A stretch of 32,000 bases of DNA from Dickeya solani IPO 2222 (GTDB lineage Bacteria; Pseudomonadota; Gammaproteobacteria; Enterobacterales; Enterobacteriaceae): assembly GCF_001644705.1 (NCBI RefSeq), contig NZ_CP015137.1, forward strand, positions 1 to 32,000, written 5' to 3'. Of this stretch, positions 1 to 10,283 are shown piece after piece; within the stretch, counting starts at the first letter, position 1, and each line of letters starts with the position of its first letter. The position numbers were made by a program, and so were the translations under genes. The notes under the pieces were generated by a model. The model was not told the origin of the DNA. It searched no databases and was given only the letters and a program-made list of their open reading frames with translations.

Positions 1-144
1 CGCCAGCCGGCTGGCTGAAATGCAACGGTCAGGCGTTCGACAAAAACGCCTTCCCTAAACTGGCGCTGGCGTACCCCGGCGGCGTCCTGCCGGATCTGCG
101 TGGTGAGTTTATTCGTGGCTGGGATGATGGGCGCGGGGTGGATG
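1..144. repeat. Left arm of a long inverted repeat (partner 4566..4709); probably continues upstream of the window
   Basis: Direct comparison: 1-115 is identical to the reverse complement of 4595-4709. There are 3 mismatches out to about 144, after which the sequences diverge. Confidence 0.9.
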
Positions 145-386
145 CGGGGCGTGCTCTGAGTTCCGTGCAAACGGATGAACTCCGGTCTCACAAACACCGT
201 TTCATTAATGAATATGGCACACCGACAGAACGGATCATTGCATTTAGCGATGAGAATAATGAAAAGATTGAGGTCACGCTCTCATCGGGAGCACGTGCGC
301 ATACATACATTTTTATGGAGAACACAGGGGGAGTTGAAACCCGTCCGCGCAATATCGCCTTTAGCTACATCGTGAGGGCTGCCTGA
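1..386 (+). CDS. Phage tail fibre protein, 3' end (5' part lies upstream of the window): tail-collar domain plus variable tip, cassette 1, apparently in the expressed orientation
   Basis: Frame 3 is open from the window edge to the TGA at 384-386. The translation PAGWLKCNGQAFDKNAFPKLALAYPGGVLPDLRGEFIRGWDDGRGVD is a phage tail-collar signature. It is followed by a unique tip of about 65 aa and the terminal TRPRNIAFSYIVRAA shared with the other two cassettes. Confidence 0.85.
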   Translation, partial: PAGWLKCNGQAFDKNAFPKLALAYPGGVLPDLRGEFIRGWDDGRGVDAGRALSSVQTDELRSHKHRFINEYGTPTERIIAFSDENNEKIEVTLSSGARAHTYIFMENTGGVETRPRNIAFSYIVRAA

Positions 387-468
387 GGACTGGAGAACTT
401 ATCTGTTTTATCGATGCCCGGCGCCGGCAGCCTCTTGGATGAGTCCGGAATAAACCGGTAAACCACCG

Positions 469-495
469 CGCGGTGAGGGGACTCACCGCGTTTTT
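469..495 (+). terminator. Rho-independent terminator after tip cassette 1
   Basis: 9-bp stem cgcggtgag / ctcaccgcg with loop ggga, followed by TTTTT (491-495). Confidence 0.8.
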
Positions 496-571
496 ACGCT
501 GTGGCCGACAAGGTGCTATTCCACCGTACTCCCGTTATAGTAGACAGGTGGTTTGGATAAGCGCGAGTGAC

Positions 572-1141
572 ATGATGAATCCTGATGAAAAAACGCTGTT
601 CCTGGATGCTATGGACGATGTCAAACCGCTAAAGCCGTCCGCTACCGTCGTTCATCTTAAACCCGTTTCGGCGAAAACCGTCCTTCCCCACATTGCGGAA
701 ACAGCGCCGGATAACTTTCTTATCACCGGCTTTCTCGATCTGTTTTCATGCGAGGTCCCGCTGGAGTTCAGGCGAGAAGGTATCCAGCAAGGCGTTGTGG
801 ATAAACTGCGGCAGGGAAAGTATCCGCTGGATGGCAGCCTCAACCTGCTGCGTCAGCCGGTTGAGACCTGTCGGCAGAATCTGTTGGCGTTCATGTTGCA
901 GGCACAGCAGGATAACTTGCGTAATCTACTGATTATTCATGGCAAAGGTCGTCATGAAAAATCACACGCCAATGTCATACGCAATTACCTGTTTCGCTGG
1001 CTGCAGCAGTTTGACGCCGTGCAAGCCTTTTGTACTGCGCAACCGTTTCATGGCGGTACCGGCGCCTGTTATGTGTCGCTTAAAAAATCCGACCAGGCCC
1101 GTCAGGATAACCGCGAGAGACACGCTAAACGCAGCCGTTGA
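572..1141 (+). CDS. smrA: Smr-domain DNA endonuclease SmrA (YdaL family)
   Basis: From MMNPDEKTLFLDAMDDVKPLK the protein is collinear with E. coli SmrA, including LIIHGKGRHEKSHANVIRNY and the C-terminal ERHAKRSR. The ORF-track start at 473 overlaps the upstream terminator and is rejected. Confidence 0.85.
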   Translation: MMNPDEKTLFLDAMDDVKPLKPSATVVHLKPVSAKTVLPHIAETAPDNFLITGFLDLFSCEVPLEFRREGIQQGVVDKLRQGKYPLDGSLNLLRQPVETCRQNLLAFMLQAQQDNLRNLLIIHGKGRHEKSHANVIRNYLFRWLQQFDAVQAFCTAQPFHGGTGACYVSLKKSDQARQDNRERHAKRSR

Positions 1142-1162
1142 TCTTTTGTTCAAGCCAAAGAA

Positions 1163-1184
1163 AACGCCCGGATAACCGGGCGTT
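1163..1184 (-). terminator. Hairpin between convergent smrA and the MFS gene; functions best on the minus strand
   Basis: Stem aacgcccgg / ccgggcgtt with loop ataa. On the minus strand it is followed by TTTTCTTTGG; on the plus strand the tail is poor. Confidence 0.6.
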
Positions 1185-1205
1185 GGTGTATGGGCGTCGG
1201 CATAT

Positions 1206-2552
1206 TTAGTAACTGAGTCCTGCAACGGCGGGCCGGCTATAGCCGAATTGTCCTTTGGCAAGAATCATCAGCGACGTCAACAGTGCAGGAATAGCCAGAA
1301 TAGTAAACATGGTGGTCAGCCCCCATCCCATATTAACCACCTGCGCGCCGGCGAACGCGCTCATGATGGCGCCCATTCGGCCAACGCCATGCATCCAGCC
1401 TGAGCCGGTGGCGCGAGCTTCTGTCGGATAGTAACGGGCGGAAAGCGCATTCATGCCGGTGTTGGCGCCGTTGAGGCAAAATCCGCTGCTGAACGCGACT
1501 ACCGCCAGCATCACGAAGTAGGCGTGGGTGAGGCCAATCATCGCGGTAGCTACGCCGCCGGCGGCGTAAATCATGCCAAGCGCCAGATGCGGGTTAACGC
1601 GGTCCATCAGCCAGCCGGCAAACAGCGAACCGAACGTGCCGCCGGCCTGATACAGGGCGGTAATAATAGTGGCCTCGGTCACGCTCATGCCGGCTTCCTT
1701 GATGACGGTCGGCAGCCAACTGCCCAACAGATACACCATAAACAAACCGAAGAAATAGCCACCCCACAACATGACGCTGCCAAAACGGTAAGAGCGGGAC
1801 AGCACCAGTTGAACGGCAAATGCAGGCGTTTTTTCTGCCACGGGCATAGCGAACTGACTGTCGGCCTGACTGATGCCGGGAGCGATTTTATCCACGATGT
1901 GATGAATCTGATGCGAATCCGCCCGCTTGCTGACCAGGAACCGCACCGACTCCGGCAGCTTCATCAGCAGGAACGGCACCAGCAGCAGTGGCAAAATGCC
2001 GCCCATCAGCAACACGGAATGCCAGCCCCACTGCGGAATCATCCAGGAGGCGGCAAATCCGCCGCTGGCGGCGCCGAAGCTGAAGCCGCAGAAGACCACG
2101 GTAATGATGAAGGAGCGTTTTTTCTCCGGCGCAAACTCCGATACCAGCGTACCGACGTTCGGCATCGCCGCCCCCAGGCCTAAGCCGGTCAGAAAGCGGA
2201 AAATCACCATGTGTTGTGAGGTTTGGGAGAACGCCGTCAATAAGGTCCACAAGCCGAACAAAAATACGCTGGCGATAATGATCGTTTTACGGCCTCGCCA
2301 ATCCGCCAGCGGCCCGGAAATCATCGCCCCGACGGCCAGCCCGATCAGCGCTGCGCTGATAACCACGGCCAGTTCTGCGTTGCCGATTCCCCAGGCTGCT
2401 TTCAACGATGGCGCGATAAAGCCCATGATGGCGATGTCCATGCCATCAAGCGCAATAATACAAAAGCAAAGAAAAACAATCAGTTTCTGGTAAGCGCCAA
2501 GAGGACGCTGATTAATCAGCTGGCGTACGTCAATCGCGGTGGAACCTGTCAC
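1206..2552 (-). CDS. MFS transporter, aromatic acid:H+ symporter type (PcaK/MhpT-like)
   Basis: A 12-TM-like hydrophobic pattern with MFS motifs (GPLADWRGRK, FLTGLGLGAAMPN). Start set at the GTG at 2552, which lies 6 nt after GGAGA; the longer ORF-track start has no RBS. Confidence 0.8.
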   Translation of the reverse strand: MTGSTAIDVRQLINQRPLGAYQKLIVFLCFCIIALDGMDIAIMGFIAPSLKAAWGIGNAELAVVISAALIGLAVGAMISGPLADWRGRKTIIIASVFLFGLWTLLTAFSQTSQHMVIFRFLTGLGLGAAMPNVGTLVSEFAPEKKRSFIITVVFCGFSFGAASGGFAASWMIPQWGWHSVLLMGGILPLLLVPFLLMKLPESVRFLVSKRADSHQIHHIVDKIAPGISQADSQFAMPVAEKTPAFAVQLVLSRSYRFGSVMLWGGYFFGLFMVYLLGSWLPTVIKEAGMSVTEATIITALYQAGGTFGSLFAGWLMDRVNPHLALGMIYAAGGVATAMIGLTHAYFVMLAVVAFSSGFCLNGANTGMNALSARYYPTEARATGSGWMHGVGRMGAIMSAFAGAQVVNMGWGLTTMFTILAIPALLTSLMILAKGQFGYSRPAVAGLSY

Positions 2553-2660
2553 GCTGTTTCTCCAACAATACCGCAAAAATGTTCACAATGGCTTACACTG
2601 TAAACAATTATTTCCGATAGGGAAATATAATGGCGGGAAAAAATTTTAAGGGCCGGAGAA

Positions 2661-2693
2661 ATAAAAGCGGCGCACCGTAAATGGATGCGCCGC
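2661..2693 (-). terminator. Rho-independent terminator after the phytase-like gene
   Basis: On the minus strand: gcggcgca ... tgcgccgc stem (8 bp, 11-nt loop) followed by TTTTAT. Confidence 0.7.
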
Positions 2694-2715
2694 CGAATAA
2701 TCAATGCAGAATGGG

Positions 2716-4071
2716 CTAGTAGAGCGGCTGGGGAAGGTGGATGATCCACAACTGGCTGGCGGCGTCATCGTTTGACAGCGGTTCCAGTTCCAGACGGGTA
2801 TCGACCGCTTTTCCATCCAGCAGCAGCGCGCCATCAGCGCCTACCTGATATTTCCCGATCTTCTTTACACCCTTGACAGGGTTGACCAGTACGGACTGTA
2901 CGCCAAAATCGTTGTCGTTGGTGACCGCCAGCGTACGGGCATCGATTAGCGCTAACCCTTCTGCCTTCTCAGGCCTCCAGCCCAACTGGCGCAAATCGAC
3001 CAGTTGCTGCTTTTTCGCCAGCACGACACCGCGTTTCGCCAGCGTTTTAGCATCATTCCACTCTGCCGGCTGTTTCGCATCCAACGCGCTCAGATCGCTG
3101 GCCTGGCTCAGGTCAACACGGTAAATCAGGTTACGCATCACCTTGTTTTTATCCGCTCCTTGCTCAATCACCAGCACTTCATGGTCGTTGAGCGCCACCA
3201 TGTCGCCAATTTTGGCGTCACCGTTTTTTTGCCACTGATCCGCATCCAGCGGATAGCCGTACATGGCAGTTTTGCCCGTTGCCGGATCAAAGCTGACCAG
3301 GCGAGTCAATAACGCCTTGTTTTTGGTTTTCCCCTCGATATCCAGCGTGCTTTGCACCGCAGCCAGAATGCGGCCGTCAGGCATGCGGGTGATGCCTTCA
3401 AAGCCCCGGTTAGGCTGGCGCCATTTAAGAATATTGGGTAAACCACTGGCTACGCCTTGTTCGCCGCTTAGTGGCGTCGGGCCGACTTTCTTCAGGATTT
3501 TTCCTTGCGCATCCACCTGAATCAGGAACGGACCGTATTCATCCGATAGCCAAAATCCCCCCTGACCATCCGGCGTAATACCTTCGGTATCCAGCCCACG
3601 GCGGTCATCCGTTAATTTTTGCAATCCATCGTTGAGCGCCACTTCATTGGTGGTGCCGACTAGCGAACCGGGTAACGGCAAGCCACTGATAGGGCCGGCT
3701 TCATCATGCAATTTGCGCAGCGCCGTAGCTTGCGCGCTTTTAGCATTAACGGTAATGGTCATGATGGAGGGGGTAAAATCAGGTGCGGCAAAGATTTTCG
3801 CGTCTTTGCCCTGATATTCCGGCGCATCGGCATTCGGGCCGCGATCGGTAACGGTAACAAACGTCAGCTTGTCGCCATCCCGCCCGATAAATGACAATCC
3901 GGAACCGACCCCCATGGGAAAACCGTTGGGAAAACGCGTCTGCCACTTACCGCGGTAACTGACCCGATCATTATCAGGAAAGGTAATCTGGTACTGCTCG
4001 GTTTGAATCTCTGCCGCCTGAACCACCTGGGCCAGCAGGAGCATAGGGAGAAATGATAAACGAAGACGCAT
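2716..4071 (-). CDS. Secreted phytase-like protein ('esterase-like activity of phytase' family)
   Basis: Signal peptide MRLRLSFLPMLLLAQVVQA/AE. Beta-propeller-like repeats with DTEGI, SDEYGP and NRGFEGI motifs recalled from the phytase-like family. Family assignment is from memory, not from a search. Confidence 0.55.
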   Translation of the reverse strand: MRLRLSFLPMLLLAQVVQAAEIQTEQYQITFPDNDRVSYRGKWQTRFPNGFPMGVGSGLSFIGRDGDKLTFVTVTDRGPNADAPEYQGKDAKIFAAPDFTPSIMTITVNAKSAQATALRKLHDEAGPISGLPLPGSLVGTTNEVALNDGLQKLTDDRRGLDTEGITPDGQGGFWLSDEYGPFLIQVDAQGKILKKVGPTPLSGEQGVASGLPNILKWRQPNRGFEGITRMPDGRILAAVQSTLDIEGKTKNKALLTRLVSFDPATGKTAMYGYPLDADQWQKNGDAKIGDMVALNDHEVLVIEQGADKNKVMRNLIYRVDLSQASDLSALDAKQPAEWNDAKTLAKRGVVLAKKQQLVDLRQLGWRPEKAEGLALIDARTLAVTNDNDFGVQSVLVNPVKGVKKIGKYQVGADGALLLDGKAVDTRLELEPLSNDDAASQLWIIHLPQPLY

Positions 4072-4163
4072 GGTCGAACCCCGTAAAAGAAATCAGCGAC
4101 ATCACACTAAAACTGTAATACGACGCGTTTATGACAGTACAGTACGGCAACGATACATATTGT

Positions 4164-4190
4164 AAAAACGCGGTAAGTCCCTTCACCGCG
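4164..4190 (-). terminator. Rho-independent terminator after tip cassette 2
   Basis: On the minus strand: cgcggtgaag-gga-cttaccgcg (one bulge) followed by TTTTT. It is homologous to the terminator at 469-495. Confidence 0.7.
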
Positions 4191-4278
4191 CTGTAGCTTA
4201 CCGGTTAGATTCCGGATTTATCCGACTATGAGGCCGTCGGCGCCGTGGCGATATCGTAAGGCTCGGTTTCACCCGATA

Positions 4279-4809
4279 TCAGGCGGCCCTCACGATGTAG
4301 CTAAAGGCGATATTGCGGGGGCGGGTAGCACCATACCCAAACTGCCAACCATTTGAATCCAAATCTTGTGCACCCGACGCCTCCACATTTATAGAGGAGC
4401 GTAGCATGCCATAATCGCCTTTATTAACAACATCAAACCCCATGGATTTGTATGTATTGGCACTATCGTTGTTTGCATGTATCAACGCTCCCACATTTAC
4501 TGAAGCTAAGTTAGGATCTGAAATAGTCAGAGTTCCTTTTTGCCAACTTAGCAATTCACGGGCAACATCCACCCCACGCCCATCATCCCATCCGCGAATA
4601 AACTCACCACGCAGATCCGGCAGGACGCCGCCGGGGTACGCCAGCGCCAGTTTAGGGAAGGCGTTTTTGTCGAACGCCTGACCGTTGCATTTCAGCCAGC
4701 CGGCTGGCGGCGTCGCCTGCGGCCAGGGCAGCGGTATGCCCGCCAGGTCGGTGGTTTTCAGCACGTCGCTTAAACCCAGGTTTGCGAGAAAACCAGAGGA
4801 TAAATACAA
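4279..4809 (-). CDS. Alternative tail-fibre C-terminal cassette 2 (tail-collar domain plus different tip); promoterless and silent in this orientation
   Basis: Encodes ...GIPLPWPQATPPAGWLKCNGQAFDKNAFPKLALAYPGGVLPDLRGEFIRGWDDGRGVD, then a unique tip of about 80 aa, then TRPRNIAFSYIVRAA. An in-frame TGA lies immediately upstream, and there is only a TTG 'start' with no RBS. Confidence 0.8.
   Translation of the reverse strand: MYLSSGFLANLGLSDVLKTTDLAGIPLPWPQATPPAGWLKCNGQAFDKNAFPKLALAYPGGVLPDLRGEFIRGWDDGRGVDVARELLSWQKGTLTISDPNLASVNVGALIHANNDSANTYKSMGFDVVNKGDYGMLRSSINVEASGAQDLDSNGWQFGYGATRPRNIAFSYIVRAA
4566..4709. repeat. Right arm of the long inverted repeat (partner 1..144)
   Basis: The reverse complement of 4595-4709 is identical to 1-115. 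Confidence 0.9.
4765..4790. other. Candidate 26-bp crossover site for a Din-family (hix/gix/cix-like) invertase
   Basis: The minus strand reads TTCTCGCAAACC-TG-GGTTTAAGCGAC. This has the 12-2-12 architecture with the AAACC-NN-GGTTT core of hix/gix/cix sites. It lies at the 5' edge of cassette 2 and 44 bp upstream of the invertase ATG. Confidence 0.65.
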
Positions 4810-4833
4810 TCAGCCTTTTCAGGAGGTTAGGTT

Positions 4834-5430
4834 ATGCTTATTGGCTATGCCCGGGTATCCACCAGCGATCAAAATACCGAATTGCAAAAAAACGCGCTGG
4901 TCGGCGCAAATTGTGAACTGATTTTTGAAGATCACGCCAGCGGCAAAAACGCCAGACGGCCGGGGTTGAAACGGGCCTTGCGCAAGCTCAAACGCGGCGA
5001 CACCCTGATCGTCTGGAAACTCGATCGGCTGGGCCGCAGCGTACGGGACCTGATTACCATGGTGTCGGACCTGCAAGCGCACGGCATTCACTTTCGCAGC
5101 CTGACCGATGCGATTGATACGACAACGCCAGCCGGCCGCTTCTTTTTCCACGTGATGAGTGCGCTGGCCGAAATGGAGCGAGAACTGATCGTCGAACGAA
5201 CCCGCGCCGGACTGGCGGCCGCCCGGGCGGCGGGTCGCATCGGCGGTCGTCGGCGCATCATGACGCCAGACGCCATCGAACACGCCAAAACGCTGCTGAC
5301 CAATGGTGCAACCCGCTGGCAAATCGCCAATATTATCGGCGTGTCGGAAAAAACCATTTATAAATATTTTCCCGTCACACAAAAAACAGTTGTTAGTGAA
5401 TTATTATCATATGGAAAATATGAAGGATGA
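4834..5430 (+). CDS. Site-specific DNA invertase, serine recombinase of the Hin/Gin/Cin/Pin family
   Basis: MLIGYARVSTSDQNTELQKNAL...GDTLIVWKLDRLGRS...FRSLTDAIDTTTPAGRFFFHVMSALAEMERELIVERTRAGLAAARAAGRIGGR is collinear with Gin/Hin. There is a C-terminal HTH and a strong RBS (AGGAGG) upstream. Confidence 0.92.
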   Translation: MLIGYARVSTSDQNTELQKNALVGANCELIFEDHASGKNARRPGLKRALRKLKRGDTLIVWKLDRLGRSVRDLITMVSDLQAHGIHFRSLTDAIDTTTPAGRFFFHVMSALAEMERELIVERTRAGLAAARAAGRIGGRRRIMTPDAIEHAKTLLTNGATRWQIANIIGVSEKTIYKYFPVTQKTVVSELLSYGKYEG

Positions 5431-5447
5431 TAATTAATATTAAAATA

Positions 5448-5469
5448 ATAAAGCCATCATCGGCTTTAT
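5448..5469 (+). terminator. Weak terminator-like hairpin after the invertase gene
   Basis: Stem ataaagcc / ggctttat with a 6-nt loop; the downstream T tract is poor. Confidence 0.4.
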
Positions 5470-5572
5470 CATTCTCCATACAACACAGTGGGAATGCGTA
5501 GCCAGTGTTTTCATCAAATAATAAATGGCGCGATATAACATGCGTTAATAAATTAACATTGAGAGAAAACAC

Positions 5573-6151
5573 ATGGAAAAAAATAATTCCCCCTGTTCAC
5601 TTGACCTGATTCTGGGCAAGGAGAACCTGTATAAAAATAGTCCAATTAATATCGGCAGCATTTCGCTTGGATGCTGCAAGTGCCAGGATACCCCTGCGAC
5701 TACCCCCACCACAACCGATGGGTTGAAAGATTTGGTCGGGATTCCGCAACCCTGGCCGTTGGCAGAAGCACCGGAAGGCTGGCTGAAATGTAATGGCCAG
5801 ACATTTGATACCGCAAAATATCCGCAACTGGCAAAACTATATCCTGCCGGCACCTTGCCGGACCTGCGCGGCGAATTTATTCGTGGTTGGGATGATGGGC
5901 GTGGGGTAGATGCCAAACGAGAAATTGGTTCCGCTCAATTGGGAACACATATCACTGGTGATAACGGCTTATATCCTGCTGTACATGGTATAGGGAAAAT
6001 AGCAGAATGTTATGTAGATAGTCCCGATGCTACTCCTCGTTCATTATATTGGATTGCCGCACCGAATAATGAACTCCAAACAGGACCAACATTTTGGGGT
6101 GCCACTCGCCCACGCAATATCGCCTTCAGTTATATCGTCAAGGCAGGCTAA
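5573..6151 (+). CDS. Tail-collar domain tail-fibre tip protein, cassette 3; has its own ATG and a fixed orientation
   Basis: GIPQPWPLAEAPEGWLKCNGQTFDTAKYPQLAKLYPAGTLPDLRGEFIRGWDDGRGVD, then a unique tip, then TRPRNIAFSYIVKAG. It is AT-rich, a stop codon lies at 5549-5551 just upstream, and it abuts the chaperone gene. Confidence 0.75.
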   Translation: MEKNNSPCSLDLILGKENLYKNSPINIGSISLGCCKCQDTPATTPTTTDGLKDLVGIPQPWPLAEAPEGWLKCNGQTFDTAKYPQLAKLYPAGTLPDLRGEFIRGWDDGRGVDAKREIGSAQLGTHITGDNGLYPAVHGIGKIAECYVDSPDATPRSLYWIAAPNNELQTGPTFWGATRPRNIAFSYIVKAG

Positions 6152-6153
6152 TC

Positions 6154-6765
6154 ATGACCACACAAAATGAAACCATGATTCAGCTGAATGAACAGGGGCT
6201 GAGTATCAGCAGTGGATATATTCAGGTCTACCATATTGAACCGCAAACGCGGGAATATATCGGCAGCACCCGGGAATATTTGATGGAAGGCGTGGGTATT
6301 CCGGCACACAGTTTCATCGATACGCCGCCGCCCCTTCAAGCCGGCCAGACTGTCGTACGCAGTCAGGACAGTTTAACCTGGGAAAGCATTGCTGATTATC
6401 GCGGGCAGACCGCCTACGAGAAACAAACACGGCAACCCAACCCAATCACCCAGCCCGGCGACCTGCCCGAAACCCTGACGCTGTTGCCGCCGGCCACCGA
6501 CTACGATGTCTGGCAAAACGACGGCTGGGTGACCGATGCCAAAGCGCAGCAGACCGCACAAGCCAGCGCGGCGCAACAGCAGATGGCTGGTTATCTCGCC
6601 CAGGCGGAAAAACGCCTTGCCGTGCTGCAGTACGCGGTGGAACTGGAGATGGCGACGGAACAGGAAACCCAGGCGCTGAAGAACTGGAAAACCTATATGG
6701 TGCAGTTAAGCCGGGTGGACGTGTCGTCTGCGCCCGCTATCGACTGGCCGACCATGCCCGCCTGA
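6154..6765 (+). CDS. G: Tail fibre assembly chaperone (P2 gpG / Tfa family)
   Basis: The C-terminal LQYAVELEMATEQETQALKNWKTYMVQLSRVDVSSAPAIDWPTMP is the characteristic Tfa motif. The ATG at 6154 lies just after the cassette 3 stop (TAATCATG). Confidence 0.88.
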   Translation: MTTQNETMIQLNEQGLSISSGYIQVYHIEPQTREYIGSTREYLMEGVGIPAHSFIDTPPPLQAGQTVVRSQDSLTWESIADYRGQTAYEKQTRQPNPITQPGDLPETLTLLPPATDYDVWQNDGWVTDAKAQQTAQASAAQQQMAGYLAQAEKRLAVLQYAVELEMATEQETQALKNWKTYMVQLSRVDVSSAPAIDWPTMPA

Positions 6766-6808
6766 TTCGCCTTTTCCCAGTGGCGTGAACTGATCCGCCC
6801 AACCCCCA

Positions 6809-6845
6809 CAGATGCCGTTGTCACTCCAACGGCATCTGTTTTTTA
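6809..6845 (+). terminator. Rho-independent terminator after the chaperone gene
   Basis: 12-bp stem cagatgccgttg / caacggcatctg with loop tcactc, followed by TTTTTTATTT. Confidence 0.85.
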
Positions 6846-6860
6846 TTTCAAATAACCAAT

Positions 6861-6990: not shown

Positions 6991-8160
6991 ATGAGTGATT
7001 TTCATCACGGTACGCAGGTCGTCGAAATCAACGACGGTACCCGCGTCATTTCAACTGTATCAACCGCGATCGTCGGTATGGTCTGTACCGGATCGGACGC
7101 TGACGCCACCACTTTTCCACTGAATACACCGGTACTGATTACCGATGTGCTGACCGCCGCAGGCAAAGCCGGTAAAACCGGTACCCTGGCTGCCGCGTTG
7201 CAGGCCATCGGCGATCAGACCAAACCGGTGACGGTAGTCGTTCGCGTCGCCGAAGGCGCCAACGAGGCTGAAACGGTGTCCAACATCATCGGCGGCGCCG
7301 ATGCCAACGGCAAATACACCGGTATGAAAGCCCTGCTGGACGCCCAGGCCGTCACTGGCGTGAAGCCGCGTATCCTCGGCGTTCCGGGGCTGGATTCCCA
7401 GCCTGTCGCCACCGCGCTGGCCGCCATCTGTCAGTCGCTGCGCGCCTTCGGTTACGTCAGCGCCTATGGCTGTAAGACCCTGTCCGACGCCATCAAATAC
7501 CGCGGCAACTTCAGCCAGCGCGAACTGATGGTGATCTGGCCGGACTTTATCGCCTGGAACACCGCCACCAACGCCAGCGCCACCGCCTACGCCACCGCGC
7601 GTGCGCTGGGCCTGCGTGCCAAGATCGACCAGGAAACCGGCTGGCACAAGACCCTGTCCAACGTCGGCGTCAATGGCGTGACCGGTATCTCCGCCAGCGT
7701 GTACTGGGACCTGCAGACCATCGGCAGCGACGCCGACCTGCTGAACGAAGCCGGCGTGACTACGCTGGTGCGTAAGGACGGTTTCCGCTTCTGGGGTAAC
7801 CGCACCTGTTCCGACGATCCGCTCTTCCTGTTTGAAAACTACACCCGCACCGCGCAAGTGCTGGCCGACACCATGGCTGAAGCGCACATGTGGGCCGTCG
7901 ACAAACCGGTTACCGCCACCCTGATCCGCGACATCATCGAGGGTATCAAAGCCAAGTTCCGCGAGCTGAAATCCAACGGCTACATCATTGACGCCGACTG
8001 CTGGTTCGATGAAAGCGCCAACGATAAGGAAACGCTGAAGGCCGGCAAGCTGTACATCGACTACGAGTACACCCCGGTGCCGCCACTGGAAAACCTCACG
8101 CTGCGTCAGCGTATCACCGACAAGTATCTGGTGAACCTGGCCGCATCCGTTAACAGCTAA
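6991..8160 (+). CDS. FI: Contractile tail sheath protein (P2 gpFI)
   Basis: MSDFHHGTQVVEINDGTRVISTVSTAIVGMVCT... is nearly collinear with P2 FI through ...LTLRQRITDKYLVNL. The ORF-track start at 6901 is an upstream extension. Confidence 0.95.
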   Translation: MSDFHHGTQVVEINDGTRVISTVSTAIVGMVCTGSDADATTFPLNTPVLITDVLTAAGKAGKTGTLAAALQAIGDQTKPVTVVVRVAEGANEAETVSNIIGGADANGKYTGMKALLDAQAVTGVKPRILGVPGLDSQPVATALAAICQSLRAFGYVSAYGCKTLSDAIKYRGNFSQRELMVIWPDFIAWNTATNASATAYATARALGLRAKIDQETGWHKTLSNVGVNGVTGISASVYWDLQTIGSDADLLNEAGVTTLVRKDGFRFWGNRTCSDDPLFLFENYTRTAQVLADTMAEAHMWAVDKPVTATLIRDIIEGIKAKFRELKSNGYIIDADCWFDESANDKETLKAGKLYIDYEYTPVPPLENLTLRQRITDKYLVNLAASVNS

Positions 8161-8732: not shown

Positions 8733-8753
8733 GATAGCACTGGAGTTTTTATC

Positions 8754-9044
8754 ATGACGGTTGAAACAACTGCACAAAACGACGTCATCATCCTGAACGC
8801 CCCGATCAAACGCGGCGAAACCCAGATTGACGCCATCACGCTGCTAACGCCAACCGCAGGCACGCTGCGCGGCATCGGTCTGGCGGCACTGGCGAGCGCC
8901 GATGTGGAAGCGCTGATTAAATTGCTGCCGCGTATCACTTACCCTGCCCTGACCGAAGCGGACGTCATGGGGCTGGAACTGCCAGACCTGCTTGAATTCG
9001 CCGGCAAGGTGATCGGTTTTTTATCGCCGGGCTCGGTACGCTGA
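8754..9044 (+). CDS. E: Tail assembly chaperone gpE
   Basis: NAPIKRGETQIDAITLLTPTAGTLRGIGLAALA...LELPDLLEFAGKVIGFLSP resembles P2 gpE. A GGAG RBS precedes the start. Confidence 0.85.
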   Translation: MTVETTAQNDVIILNAPIKRGETQIDAITLLTPTAGTLRGIGLAALASADVEALIKLLPRITYPALTEADVMGLELPDLLEFAGKVIGFLSPGSVR

Positions 9045-9196
9045 CGCTGCCGCCGAGCCTCACGGTTGACGACCTGATGGCGGATATCGCCGTGGTGTTC
9101 CACTGGCCGCCATCCACACTTTTCCCCATGAGCCTGGCAGAGTTGATTAACTGGCGTGCCAAGGCGCTACAACGAAGTGGACAAGACTATGCCTAA
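8754..9196 (+). CDS. E': gpE+E' frameshift-extended tail chaperone (-1 shift at 9017-9023)
   Basis: The -1 frame after the slip reads FFIAGLGTLTLPPSLTVDDLMADIAVVFHWPPSTLFPMSLAELINWRAKALQRSGQDYA*. The FHWP...SLxELxxW pattern is typical of the P2 E' extension. Its stop overlaps the next gene's start. Confidence 0.75.
9017..9023 (+). other. Programmed -1 frameshift slippery heptamer T_TTT_TTA
   Basis: An X_XXY_YYZ heptamer in the gpE frame (ggT TTT TTA) lies 7 codons before the E stop. The -1 frame stays open to 9196. Confidence 0.75.
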
Positions 9197-10283
9197 GCAA
9201 TCAACCACCCCGAATGACGGGTCGACGACAACAGGCGCCAGTGGACGAAGCAAAAGCGCCGGGGATAGCAGCATCTTCTCGCCGCTGGGGGATAATGTTT
9301 ATCTGAATAAAATCAGCAGCGTACTACAGGATTTTTTAAACAAAGCCGGTCAAATCACGCACAGTGGCGCGTTCAACGCCACCGGCTCGCCGAAAAAAAA
9401 CGCGACGGGCGGAAAAAAAGGCGGCAGACATTCTGCCGCGGCGCAGCTGGGAACACTGGGGAATCTCGCCAGACGATTCGACGCGCTGACCGCTATCCTG
9501 ACACCGGCCTCTTCCGCCCTGAAAACCGCGCATGACCGTTCGCCGGCGGACAATGCGGCGCTCTCCCGTAACGGCCAGTCCTCCGACGCCGGCGCAGCGC
9601 CATCGCTCATCGCTCAGGCAAGCGACGGCGTCAACAGCATCTATTTGTCCGCGACGGCGGCCATGCAGGCGCAACAGCGCATCGCCGGGCTGGTTCCTTC
9701 AGCGCGATGGGCTTCCGGCATTACCGCGCCGTCGCTGCCGGGCAACGTGGCGTCATTACTGCAAGCGCAGCAGAGCATCAATCTGCCCGCGAATCTCCTG
9801 CCACAGGTTGGCGCTGGCGCGACGTCGCAAACCGGTGCCGAAGGGCTGGACACGCTCGCCGGAACCGCACAGGAATCGTTCGTCGGCGTGGAAGAAACCA
9901 GCCTGATGCTGTCCGCATTAAGCAATGCGGACCTGGATGACGGCGACGGCGGCAACGGTGCAACCGGAGGGATTGACACGCTGCAAGCCATTTCAAGCCC
10001 GGCCCTGCAACTGCTGAGTCAATCCGCCCTGGCCGTTCAAAGCAGCGCAGAAACCCCGTCAAACCCGTTGTCTGACATGATGAACGGTCATTACCGCGCC
10101 CTCTCCCCGGCATCACAGCAAAGTTATGTTGACCAGCGCGTGGTGAATAACATCACCATCAACGTGCCGGAGAACAGCAACCTCGACACGATTAAACAAT
10201 ACATTGAAGAGGCCCTGAGAAAATACACCCCGAATAGCAGCGCGTACTCCTATAACTCCATGACCTCTAATCTCATTTCATGA
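9189..10283 (+). CDS. Protein in the tape-measure (gpT) position; unusually short (364 aa) and low-complexity
   Basis: Assigned by position only, between E' and U. The ATG at 9189 overlaps the E' stop. The protein is rich in Ala, Ser, Gly and Gln, and I saw no recognisable P2 gpT N-terminal similarity. Confidence 0.5.
   Translation: MPKQSTTPNDGSTTTGASGRSKSAGDSSIFSPLGDNVYLNKISSVLQDFLNKAGQITHSGAFNATGSPKKNATGGKKGGRHSAAAQLGTLGNLARRFDALTAILTPASSALKTAHDRSPADNAALSRNGQSSDAGAAPSLIAQASDGVNSIYLSATAAMQAQQRIAGLVPSARWASGITAPSLPGNVASLLQAQQSINLPANLLPQVGAGATSQTGAEGLDTLAGTAQESFVGVEETSLMLSALSNADLDDGDGGNGATGGIDTLQAISSPALQLLSQSALAVQSSAETPSNPLSDMMNGHYRALSPASQQSYVDQRVVNNITINVPENSNLDTIKQYIEEALRKYTPNSSAYSYNSMTSNLIS

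Follow-up and report, generated by a model that had tools for sequence, protein, structure and literature searches.

The 32,000-nt window (positions 1 to 32,000 of contig NZ_CP015137.1 of Dickeya solani IPO 2222, forward strand) corresponds to dickeyocin P2D1, a P2-like tailocin cluster, in its D. solani version, with the gene order V W J I H ... FI FII E T U D ogr at a conserved chromosomal site. Synteny was assessed from the window and from loci L001 to L020, with 10 kb seen on either side. The P2D1 cluster is known to be without head genes (PMC10719855). That the locus is a known tailocin cluster was absent from the original prediction.

The fibre region lies at the left end of the window and contains three tip cassettes, a serine DNA invertase, three cargo genes, and a tail fibre assembly gene (Table 1). 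In D. dadantii 3937, the orthologue of the third tip gene is DDA3937_RS12100, a “putative side tail fiber protein” at the same position. Both species have the order invertase, this gene, tfa, and sheath, the same leader family, and the same chromosomal site with amidohydrolase and GGDEF genes downstream, whereas the insert of RS12100 differs in type from that of D. solani tip 3 (21% identity in the insert). Published work on P2D1 treats RS12070 (H) as “the fibre” (PMC10719855), and the P2D1 papers searched discuss neither the invertase nor the switch nor how RS12100 is built.

Table 1. Features of the fibre region, in window coordinates.
Feature	Position	Strand	Remarks
Tip cassette 1, H 3' end in this orientation	1-386	+	Collar domain; ORF runs off left window end
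Terminator-like hairpin with U-run, 3' of tip 1	469-495	+	9-bp stem then UUUUU
Smr-domain gene, cargo	575-1141	+	Pfam
MFS aromatic-acid-type transporter, cargo	1206-2552	-	Pfam
Phytase-like esterase, cargo	2716-4071	-	Pfam
Terminator-like hairpin with U-run, 3' of tip 2	4162-4192	-	10-bp stem then UUUUU
Tip cassette 2, silent in this orientation	4279-4809	-	Collar-type tip
Right crossover site TTCTCGCAAACCTGGGTTTAAGCGAC	4765-4790	-	Core AAACC-NN-GGTTT; inversion breakpoint falls here
Serine DNA invertase (Hin/Gin/Cin/Pin type)	4834-5430	+	Resolvase (E=1e-48) and HTH_7
AT-rich upstream region of tip 3 gene	5431-5572	+	Alignment of ten loci; GC 0.36-0.39
Conserved upstream block CATACAACA	5477-5485	+	Ten-locus alignment
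Conserved upstream A/T block	around 5516-5523	+	Ten-locus alignment
Purine-rich RBS of tip 3 GAGAGAAA	5561-5568	+	Ten-locus alignment
Tip 3 ORF	5573-6151	+	192 aa, ATG start
Tip 3 leader (codons 1-37) and T/P/Q-rich linker (codons 38-52)	5573-5728	+	Lineage-specific module
Tip 3 body	5729-6151	+	Collar N-block, variable insert, C-terminal collar strand, stop codon
Tip 3 collar N-block	5729-5896	+
Tip 3 variable receptor-binding insert (putative)	5897-6106	+
Tip 3 C-terminal collar strand RPRNIAFSYIVKAG	6107-6148	+	Then stop codon
tfa, tail fibre assembly protein	6154-6765	+	Caudo_TAP, Pfam E=3e-34
Strong intrinsic terminator closing tip 3-tfa unit	6808-6849	+	13-bp stem and T-run; fold z-score -5.8

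The Invertible Two-Tip Switch

In the orientation of the window, H ends in tip 1, and the full H::tip1 protein of D. solani (P0158, 386 aa) matches the 229-aa H N-terminal query from end to end at 100% identity. In the sister genome L001, tip 2 is fused to H as a 401-aa fibre; both forms of H exist. The two D. solani genomes are distinguished by an exact 4,792-bp inversion, as positions 1-4792 of the window are 100% identical to L001 in reverse and the remainder is 99.96% identical in direct orientation. The crossover sequence TTCTCGCAAACCTGGGTTTAAGCGAC has a single match in the window at three or fewer mismatches; its left copy is located in H just beyond the window edge, and H of L001 contains an identical sequence at approximately 4346-4371. 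Tips 1 and 2 also form an inverted repeat (1-153 and 4557-4709) that is 95% alike over 153 nt, and the hairpin at 469-495 is the inverted-repeat partner of 4162-4206.

Tips 1 and 2, with an adjacent serine invertase (named DNA-invertase in D. solani records), inverted sites, and both orientations in nature, constitute a switch of the Hin/Gin/Cin kind. The arrangement of two opposed 3' cassettes beside the invertase is that of the Mu G segment (Gin) and the P1 C segment (Cin), and Hin-family switches also share the 26-bp site, with its AAACC-NN-GGTTT core, where the constant part of the fibre gene meets the variable part. The Mu and P1 segments have a separate tfa behind each cassette (U, U') and contain nothing else. 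In contrast, neither tip 1 nor tip 2 has a tfa inside the segment, approximately 3.7 kb of the ~4.9-kb Dickeya segment is non-phage cargo, and a third, fixed tip gene and the sole tfa lie outside it, beyond the invertase. The cargo genes (Smr, MFS, and phytase-like) are reversed in L001; they were not mentioned in the original prediction.

An inverting fibre 3' end also occurs in another tailocin of soft-rot bacteria, carotovoricin Er, whose switch was reportedly described by Nguyen and colleagues in 2001. A study of Pectobacterium (PMC13195805) states that inversion of the fibre 3' end by the Ein invertase switches the killing range of carotovoricin Er and that recombination at conserved flanking sequences moves fibre loci between members of the genus. 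Its tail lineage differs from that of P2D1 (sheath 34% identical, no nucleotide similarity), and, unlike in Dickeya, no fixed stand-alone leader-collar gene is described for it there.

A Third, Stand-Alone Collar-Type Tip

The tip 3 ORF is located beyond the invertase on the forward strand, and a TAA codon read directly from the sequence lies in frame at 5549-5551, 5' of its ATG, as the original prediction had it. Also as predicted, the region is AT-rich (GC 0.36-0.39 over 5251-5700 compared to ~0.55 in the surroundings). The sole Pfam match of tip 3 is Collar (residues 56-103, E=9e-15), and the Collar N-block and a C-terminal (R)PRNIAFxYIV flank a variable insert, as in gp37-like tips. Alignment of the three cassettes bears out the claim that tip 3 has the collar block and terminal motif of cassettes 1 and 2: all three tips share the block PxGWLKCNGQ...LPDLRGEFIRGWDDGRGVD and the end TRPRNIAFSYIV without variation, tip 3 closes with KAG where tips 1 and 2 close with RAA, and the DNA of tip 3 in these blocks is 75-82% similar to that of tips 1 and 2. 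This similarity is far beyond chance and is ordinary homology within the Collar tip family. The T4 gp37 tip (PDB 2XGF) and gp12 (1OCY) likewise have a collar N-block and a terminal NIAFNYIVR motif, although the tip 3 insert has no HxH repeats, while tip 1 has one SHKH.

Residues 1-52 of tip 3 did not align with tips 1 and 2 or with the H shaft, which was taken from the sister genome. The N-terminal part had been described as 45 unrelated residues; its unrelatedness holds, whereas its length is 52 aa (leader of 37 plus linker). The N-terminal baseplate-attachment domain PF12571 (Phage_tail_fib) of P2 gpH-type tail fibres, present in H of L001, was not found in tip 3 by Pfam.

As stated in the original prediction, simple inversion cannot fuse cassette 3 to H. 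Only one crossover site was found in the window, without a second set, and cassette 3 has its own ATG and RBS rather than a 5' crossover site; in 5431-5760, there was no crossover-like site at 2-3 mismatches and no match to the core at two or fewer. The position of tip 3 homologous to the crossover site retains 9 of 18 identical bases with a 4-nt spacer. Rarer recombination, either invertase-mediated deletion between directly repeated sites or homologous recombination in the collar blocks, could in principle still join cassette 3 to H as a third, locked fibre form, for which the direct repeats of tips 1 and 3 (75-81% identical) would offer a substrate, and a palindrome at 5711-5724 (CAACC-GATG-GGTTG) resembles the crossover core except that its spacer is 4 nt instead of 2 nt. 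Nevertheless, such a product, in which H is fused directly to a tip ending in KAG and followed by tfa, was absent from all 16 prophage-type loci, and its formation would delete the invertase and cargo, so that this route is hardly credible.

Conservation of the Leader and Start Signals

Stand-alone orthologues of tip 3 that share its leader and measure 183-230 aa are present in no fewer than 12 species or strains of Dickeya/Musicola, their genomic context having been obtained via exact-protein look-ups. The leader codons 1-37 are under strong purifying selection, with 15 synonymous and 5 non-synonymous differences relative to D. oryzae (dN/dS 0.04) and dN/dS values of 0.03 and 0.06 relative to D. 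zeae and D. undicola, respectively. The ATG is invariant and preceded by a purine-rich RBS in all ten loci aligned, which represent two genera, and the upstream blocks are kept in Musicola too, although no invertase lies upstream there.

Profile and homology searches found no homologues of the leader outside Dickeya/Musicola. A word-index search with the 56-aa leader, using a tool limited for short queries, returned no candidates, and a scan of genome contigs with the leader alignment confirmed two loci among 147 pattern matches. The leader has no recognisable baseplate-binding domain. An AlphaFold2 model of tip 3 (52-sequence alignment) had a mean pLDDT of 50 and was confident only at residues 51-100 and the last 12, with residues 1-50 below 50.

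These data bear on the proposal that cassette 3 originally formed the 3' end of H and was displaced, having been cut off on insertion of the invertible module, and that it is now nonfunctional, with a fortuitous ATG. The P2 gene order H-G is established, and cassette 3 immediately precedes tfa, the place that the 3' end of H takes in P2. Moreover, the homology to the H tips starts exactly where the crossover site would have its right half, G-L-(K/S)-D, and a match to phrog_523 extends back to residue 23. The latter was not borne out as shaft homology, and the idea that the leader is a degenerate fibre-shaft motif (..IYSPNNKPTxADIGA..) was rejected, as profile-profile alignment covered only TDGLKDLVGIP onwards. 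The selection on the leader and the intact ORFs with invariant start signals in ten loci of two genera oppose a passive remnant, which is very unlikely also in view of the protein and Musicola evidence below. A common origin of cassette 3 and the H 3' end in the distant past is possible, but cassette 3 today is a real, conserved, separately translated gene that is not decaying in relatives.

A candidate P2 Ogr-type late promoter (TGT-N12-ACA) was sought upstream of tip 3 and of the sheath gene and was absent from both; the five matches in the window are all elsewhere and at chance level. The sequence CAYACAACA occurred only once, and the only sigma-70-like match upstream of tip 3 is weak and overlaps the start codon. 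The tip 3-tfa pair may nonetheless have its own promoter and would form its own transcription unit, bounded by a weak hairpin behind the invertase gene and by the terminator at 6808.

Tip 3 Orthologues in Tailocin Preparations

The 3937 orthologue of tip 3 was found by MS in purified P2D1 tailocins, from distinct gel bands and alongside sheath, tube, J, W, and H, in PEG-purified preparations that can carry co-precipitating proteins (PMC10719855). The protein detected, P0121 (ADM98777.1), clusters at 90% with the tip 3 orthologue P0019, whose gene sits between the invertase and tfa. This D. dadantii protein is 47% identical overall to D. solani tip 3 and its variable insert is of another kind. 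The possibility that peptides in common with H had produced the identification was considered and rejected because no tryptic peptide of six or more residues is common to RS12100 and H, nor to the silent tip of the close strain L010.

In Musicola paradisiaca Ech703 and NCPPB 2511 (CM001857), the order is I, phytase, MFS, Smr, tip 3 orthologue, tfa, and sheath. Neither an H N-domain nor an invertase was found within 8 kb of the locus, Musicola proteins were absent among the 120 best H N-domain homologues, and a 20-nt relic of a tip 3' end (RPRNIA) remains between I and the phytase gene. Within this scope, H and the invertase have been lost from the cluster, and the tip 3 orthologue is the only fibre gene kept, intact where H itself is deleted. 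The tailocins of NCPPB 2511 are still active and kill Dickeya strains.

Together with the leader selection and start signals, the MS detection and retention in M. paradisiaca support the original suggestion of an independently expressed collar protein, and tip 3 is a putative structural component of the tailocin particle. Alternatively, tip 3 could be a soluble, non-structural protein that shields the producer or its kin by blocking receptors or assists Tfa in fibre assembly, which would fit the lack of the H-type PF12571 domain and a leader that is short and predicted without confidence. However, the orthologue was recovered from distinct bands of purified particles, and the NCPPB 2511 particles kill specifically although their cluster has no other fibre gene; a soluble role is therefore improbable. 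As a structural “side fibre,” tip 3 may dock to the baseplate or to H through its leader. The baseplate of phage Bas63 similarly bears two distinct fibres, both with a gp37-like tip and an N-terminal domain for docking, although the fibres of T4 and Bas63 are long and have recognised baseplate- or fibre-joining domains, whereas tip 3 has only the 37-aa leader.

A Single Tfa and Shuttling Tip Modules

The Tfa protein matches phrog_105 over its full length (E=8e-78) and belongs to the Caudo_TAP family, and its ATG begins 2 nt past the stop codon of tip 3. Like lambda gpK-type and Mu proteins (TfaMu, PDB 5YVQ), it has the family's C-terminal domain and lies right after a fibre gene. As the original prediction stated, only cassette 3 is followed by such a gene: there is one Caudo_TAP gene per orthologous cluster, with no other called in any of them and none within the invertible segment. 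Tips 1 and 2 are followed by terminator-like hairpins, and tfa therefore cannot simply be read through from H.

According to the published model, a variable N-domain of Tfa binds the fibre tip and a conserved C-domain trimerises (PMC9608196). In Dickeya, in contrast, the N-domain stays conserved from species to species even where the neighbouring tip insert is entirely different. The N-domain tracks lineage rather than tip type (Spearman 0.20) and did not co-vary with the tip served, with 94% identity of the N-domain versus 25% of the tip insert between L013 and L019, and 84% versus 24% between L016 and L018. Modules of variable types 2 and 4 occur both in the fixed slot, with a KAG end, and in the H/invertible slot, with an RAA end. 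The predicted single chaperone for three tips is correct as regards gene content, and the absence of co-variation and the presence of modules in both slots support it indirectly; the only Tfa of the cluster may serve all three collar tips. The collar tips might also need no Tfa at all.

The original prediction further proposed that the invariant C-terminus allows one chaperone to serve the three tips. This argument is weak, as the terminal motif is invariant family-wide in Collar tips, including the differently chaperoned T4 proteins: gp37 uses gp57A and gp38, and gp12 uses gp57A. The invariant C-terminus is hence no evidence for chaperone sharing and most likely completes the collar fold. This structural explanation is sufficient because, in the solved gp37 structure, the chain extends as far as the head and then turns round to reach the collar again (PMC12609058).

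Which three residues end the tip depends on the slot, which places the breakpoints of module exchange in the conserved blocks. Variable modules shared across species between fixed and invertible slots, the 75-82% identical blocks flanking the insert, and the same module type in both invertible cassettes of L006 would all be expected if cassette 3 were mainly a reservoir of tip sequence for recombination or gene conversion, its expression being incidental. Such a primary role is unlikely, as it leaves unexplained the selection on the leader, the conserved RBS, the spacing to tfa, and the protein in particle preparations, although it is compatible with the favoured explanation, a separate tip 3 fibre, as a secondary effect.

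A Switched Fibre and a Proposed Fixed Side Fibre

On balance, we favour, with some reserve, a fibre region that encodes two receptor-binding proteins, a switched H fibre and a separate, fixed tip 3 side fibre, together with a Tfa general to collar-type tips. H would be a P2-type fibre whose collar-type tip is switched between two cassettes by the Hin-family invertase, which would flip the segment together with its three cargo genes. Translation of tip 3 from its own ATG would give a protein of ~190 aa consisting of the ~37-aa leader, a flexible linker, the collar scaffold, and the variable insert. Tfa would act on the collar-type tips of the cluster in whatever slot, and the collar and C-terminal blocks could serve as homology arms by which inserts are swapped between the fixed gene, the invertible slots, and species. 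It is more doubtful, and suggested only tentatively, that the particle carries two receptor-binding proteins at once, that a short tip 3 docked by its leader can arm a particle alone, for which M. paradisiaca would be the natural experiment, and that one Tfa reads the constant collar and not the variable head. The original observation is confirmed overall, and its interpretation is partly supported.

Tailocins are under development as narrow-spectrum antibacterials against soft-rot pathogens, and their fibres set the target range. If a fixed short and a switchable long fibre coexist, the killing spectra of cultures would reflect at least two particle types with two specificities each, work treating RS12070 alone as “the fibre” would miss a determinant, and tip 3, at 190 aa with a docking leader of 37 aa, would offer a very compact retargeting scaffold. 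The locus also provides a clean natural test of Tfa recognition, as the same chaperone adjoins tip inserts that are unrelated to one another, and these inserts can be found both beside a chaperone and away from one.

The invertible slot can also hold tips of another kind. Gly_rich_2 tips in this slot bring their own gene of 75-76 aa (phrog_18617), which collar tips never do; this small accessory gene was absent from the original prediction.

Gene content and identity of the cluster

The proteins encoded in the window match Dickeya solani records exactly, and the window contains that species' copy of the tailocin cluster "dickeyocin P2D1", which was described in D. dadantii 3937 (PMC10719855). 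The locus is a variant of known fibre-diversification systems. The gene for its fixed tip, cassette 3, has been annotated before and mass spectrometry (MS) has detected its product, although the papers searched do not describe the architecture of cassette 3, its relation to the invertible switch, the natural deletion of the tail-fibre gene H in Musicola, the exchange of inserts among slots, or the behaviour of the chaperone.

Features in the first 12 kb of the window
Feature	Position	Strand	Remark
Fibre gene 3' end (tip 1)	off left end of window, to 386
Terminator-like hairpin	469-495		after tip 1; has U-run
Smr-domain gene			after first hairpin; within invertible segment
MFS transporter gene		minus	after Smr-domain gene
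Phytase-like esterase gene		minus	after MFS gene
Second terminator-like hairpin	4162-4192	minus	after tip 2; has U-run
Tip 2, inverted	4279-4809	minus
Serine invertase	4834-5430
AT-rich spacer			between invertase and cassette 3 ORF
Cassette 3 ORF	5573-6151	plus
Caudo_TAP gene (tfa)	6154-6765		followed by strong terminator
P2-type sheath, tube, E, T, U, D, ogr			downstream of strong terminator

At the tape-measure position, between E/E' and U, the window has a low-complexity ORF of 375 aa without a Pfam match (9156-10283), and the gene in this place encodes 737-825 aa in Musicola, D. lacustris, and Dickeya sp. DW0440. The P2D1 tape measure was said to be missing, yet the tails measure ~166 nm (PMC10719855).

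Cassette 3 is a conserved, independently expressed gene

The sequence observation behind the original prediction was correct, and every element of it was confirmed. Cassette 3 has its own start (ATG at 5573, preceded in frame by the TAA of 5549-5551), a Collar domain, AT-rich surroundings (GC 0.36-0.39 over 5251-5700), and a single Tfa (tail fibre assembly protein) gene, and it has in common with tips 1 and 2 an invariant block, GWLKCNGQ...LPDLRGEFIRGWDDGRGVD, as well as the end TRPRNIAFSYIV, the final three residues being KAG in tip 3 and RAA in the other two. Its N-terminus, with CCKC, is indeed unrelated to those of the other tips, but measures 52 aa rather than the 45 aa claimed.

The leader (codons 1-37) has no known relative. 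Alone, it had no match in PHROGs, and in an exhaustive phmmer search of 1.84 billion representatives the sole matches were the Dickeya cluster and a single low-complexity artefact. In a profile-profile comparison against fibre shafts the alignment began only at TDGLKDLVGIP, all 652 matching records among 50,697 phage records start at about residue 55, and the AlphaFold model over the leader is unreliable.

Cassette 3 is a gene under selection. A protein search recovered stand-alone homologues (183-230 aa, query coverage 96-100%) in D. dianthicola, D. chrysanthemi, D. dadantii, D. lacustris, D. poaceiphila, D. fangzhongdai, D. zeae, D. oryzae, D. undicola, Musicola paradisiaca, and M. keenii. 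The gene lies between the invertase (where present) and tfa in all the loci examined, and in the alignment the leader pattern M[EK]K..SPCSLDLILGKENLYKNSPINIGSISLGCCKC is kept even beside unrelated receptor-binding inserts. Between the window and D. oryzae, the leader has 15 synonymous and 5 non-synonymous differences (dN/dS 0.04; 0.03 against D. zeae and 0.06 against D. undicola), values as low as those of the collar block. The start codon is invariant in 10 of 10 loci, all with a purine-rich ribosome-binding site before the ATG (GAGAGAAA in most Dickeya, GGAGG in Musicola), and several upstream blocks are conserved, also in Musicola, which has no invertase gene upstream.

Of the two readings in the original prediction, a displaced 3' end of H or an independently expressed collar protein, the first, taken as a passive remnant, is judged wrong because the leader is under selection and the gene is intact in relatives; the low leader dN/dS and the invariant start and ribosome-binding site contradict decay. 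The second is borne out by the same features and by MS of the D. dadantii orthologue. In the P2D1 study, eight gel bands of purified particles were cut and the peptides mapped to six proteins (PMC10719855). One of them is the "putative side tail fiber protein" RS12100. The 3937 protein of this name, P0121 (ADM98777.1, 230 aa), shares a 90% cluster with P0019, which is at the cassette 3 position in D. dadantii, and the locus-tag spacing agrees (seven genes between RS12070, which is H, and RS12110). No P0121 tryptic peptide of at least 6 aa occurs in H or the silent tip of a close strain, so the MS identification cannot stem from shared peptides, and the cassette 3 protein, as its D. dadantii orthologue, is made and travels with the particles. 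Later Dickeya tailocin papers take RS12070 as "the fibre", and none returns to RS12100, the cassette 3 orthologue.

Natural loss of H in Musicola

The genes of the M. paradisiaca loci, in Ech703 (CP001654) and NCPPB 2511 (CM001857), are arranged in the order X, R, V, W, J, I, phytase, MFS, Smr, cassette 3 orthologue, tfa, and sheath. Neither the H N-domain nor the invertase was found in these two 16.5-kb loci by tblastn, even at E <= 10, and the best 120 H N-domain homologues (down to 66% identity) include every Dickeya species and no Musicola. A 20-nt relic between I and the phytase gene, CGCCCTCGCAATATCGCCGG, encodes RPRNIA and is the last trace of the deleted H tip. According to the literature, NCPPB 2511 tailocins kill Dickeya strains specifically. 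Unless a fibre gene lies elsewhere in the M. paradisiaca genome, the leader-collar protein is thus sufficient as receptor-binding protein and must attach to the particle by itself, from which we infer that the leader may be a docking module.

In the tailocin cluster of M. keenii (JAAWVW010000002.1, 4032-10060), all baseplate, sheath, and tube genes are lost, while phytase, MFS, Smr, tfa, ogr, and an intact tip 3 orthologue are retained, the last with an insert type different from that of M. paradisiaca. In a Musicola locus (L013, ~7790-7860), four tandem ATGACTAATAACC-like units of ~13 nt between Smr and the tip 3 orthologue occupy the place of the silent tip and invertase in Dickeya and may be a regulator-binding array.

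The invertible switch and transcription

Cassette 3 is not part of the switch, which is real and active. The window holds a single copy of the 26-bp site TTCTCGCAAACCTGGGTTTAAGCGAC (4765-4790), located at the 5' boundary of tip 2, and a sister D. solani genome (L001) shows the partner site to be in H, immediately beyond the left end of the window. Read in reverse, L001 matches window 1-4792 at 100.000% identity, and the other 7.4 kb of compared sequence is 99.96% identical in direct orientation; the two genomes therefore differ by one precise whole-segment inversion, cargo included. D. solani records contain both forms of H, one of 386 aa that carries tip 1 and one of 401 aa that carries tip 2. 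As originally predicted, simple inversion cannot fuse cassette 3 to the shaft: a motif scan of the window found no crossover-like sequence upstream of or within cassette 3, hence no second site set there, and the tailocin's H fused to cassette 3 was seen in none of the loci fetched.

The hairpins after tips 1 and 2 form an inverted pair with U-runs, and the H message likely stops behind the tip that is fused at the time. No U-run accompanies the hairpin downstream of the invertase gene, and a strong terminator follows tfa, a pattern that makes tip 3 and tfa their own transcription unit. A search of the window identified no promoter for this unit, which is transcribed either from a promoter within the AT-rich, conserved spacer or through continued transcription of the invertase gene; Musicola shows that an upstream invertase gene is dispensable.

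The invertible segment is ~4.9 kb long (window 1-4792, continuing left; L001 4346-9137). Its cargo of three non-phage genes between the two tips (Smr-domain, MFS aromatic-acid-type transporter, phytase-like esterase) is kept at the same place across Dickeya and Musicola, except that the phytase gene is absent in D. zeae and D. lacustris. The invertase is mentioned in none of the papers retrieved on Dickeya tailocins, and a preprint reports only strain-dependent orientation of the transporter and phytase genes. A sigma-70-like promoter match for the invertase gene (TTGCGA-17-TACAAT, 4782-4810) overlaps the crossover site, so that site occupancy and invertase transcription could interfere. In D. 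solani CP136339.1, both invertible cassettes (4482-4859 and 8752-9129) have the tip 1 insert type with few differences, which suggests gene conversion between them; inversion would hardly alter specificity there. Other D. solani assemblies (CP024711.1, CP051458.1, CP051459.1) have head-to-head or tandem duplications around the segment, with phytase-MFS-Smr back to back in both orientations and an extra copy of the stretch from tip 3 to ogr in which genes are frameshifted. Such duplications may reflect misassembly of an orientation-mixed population or be real rearrangements at the crossover sites.

Invariant C-terminus, insert exchange, and the shared chaperone

The motif RPRN..F.YIV is invariant in an alignment of 52 diverse collar tips from many genera, and aligns with the C-terminal ends of T4 gp37 (2XGF, NIAFNYIVR) and gp12 (1OCY) and, in the recently solved short tail fibre 9CUY, with the point where the collar-tip region ends (residue 303 of 554). 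As gp12 and gp37 rely on other chaperones, the motif cannot be taken for an adaptation to a single common Tfa. The chain of gp37-type tips extends out to the head domain before it folds back onto the collar (PMC12609058), so the last strand belongs to the collar fold. This fold suffices to explain the invariance, and chaperone sharing, offered originally as its significance, is not needed. The motif may still be what Tfa recognises. In the DNA, the two conserved blocks are the evident homology arms for insert exchange.

Variable inserts change slots. In D. oryzae, D. undicola, and D. zeae, the fixed gene carries the insert type that the window has in tip 2, and the fixed-gene insert type of D. 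dadantii recurs as an invertible cassette of DW0440 and D. lacustris; the end residues KAG and RAA go with the slot, not with the insert.

One chaperone gene for three tips is correct as gene content, each cluster having one Caudo_TAP gene, always after the fixed gene, and the point has gained indirect support. In the Tfa model, the N-domain binds the tip (PMC9608196). This domain tracks lineage rather than tip type (Spearman correlation 0.20): it is 94% identical between two Musicola species with inserts 25% identical, and 84% identical between DW0440 and D. lacustris with inserts 24% identical. Conversely, inserts 71-74% identical stand beside N-domains just 62-64% identical. The non-collar tip (Gly_rich_2) in the invertible slot has its own 75-76-aa gene (phrog_18617) in either orientation, always after the tip (L015 6260-6487, minus; L016 4049-4279, plus; L018 4033-4263, plus), and the product is a candidate dedicated chaperone of this tip type. 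Together with the moving inserts and an unrelated Erwinia island, these patterns fit a Tfa that serves collar tips generically. The island (Erwinia sp. AG740, QJJH01000010.1, 3029-11609) is a tandem array of five complete P2-H-type fibre genes, and no tail genes are nearby: four collar-tip fibres with one common Tfa, after the fourth gene, and a Gly-rich fifth with its own short Caudo_TAP gene. Among full-length relatives, the tip encoded by the fourth gene comes closest to tip 3 (66% identity).
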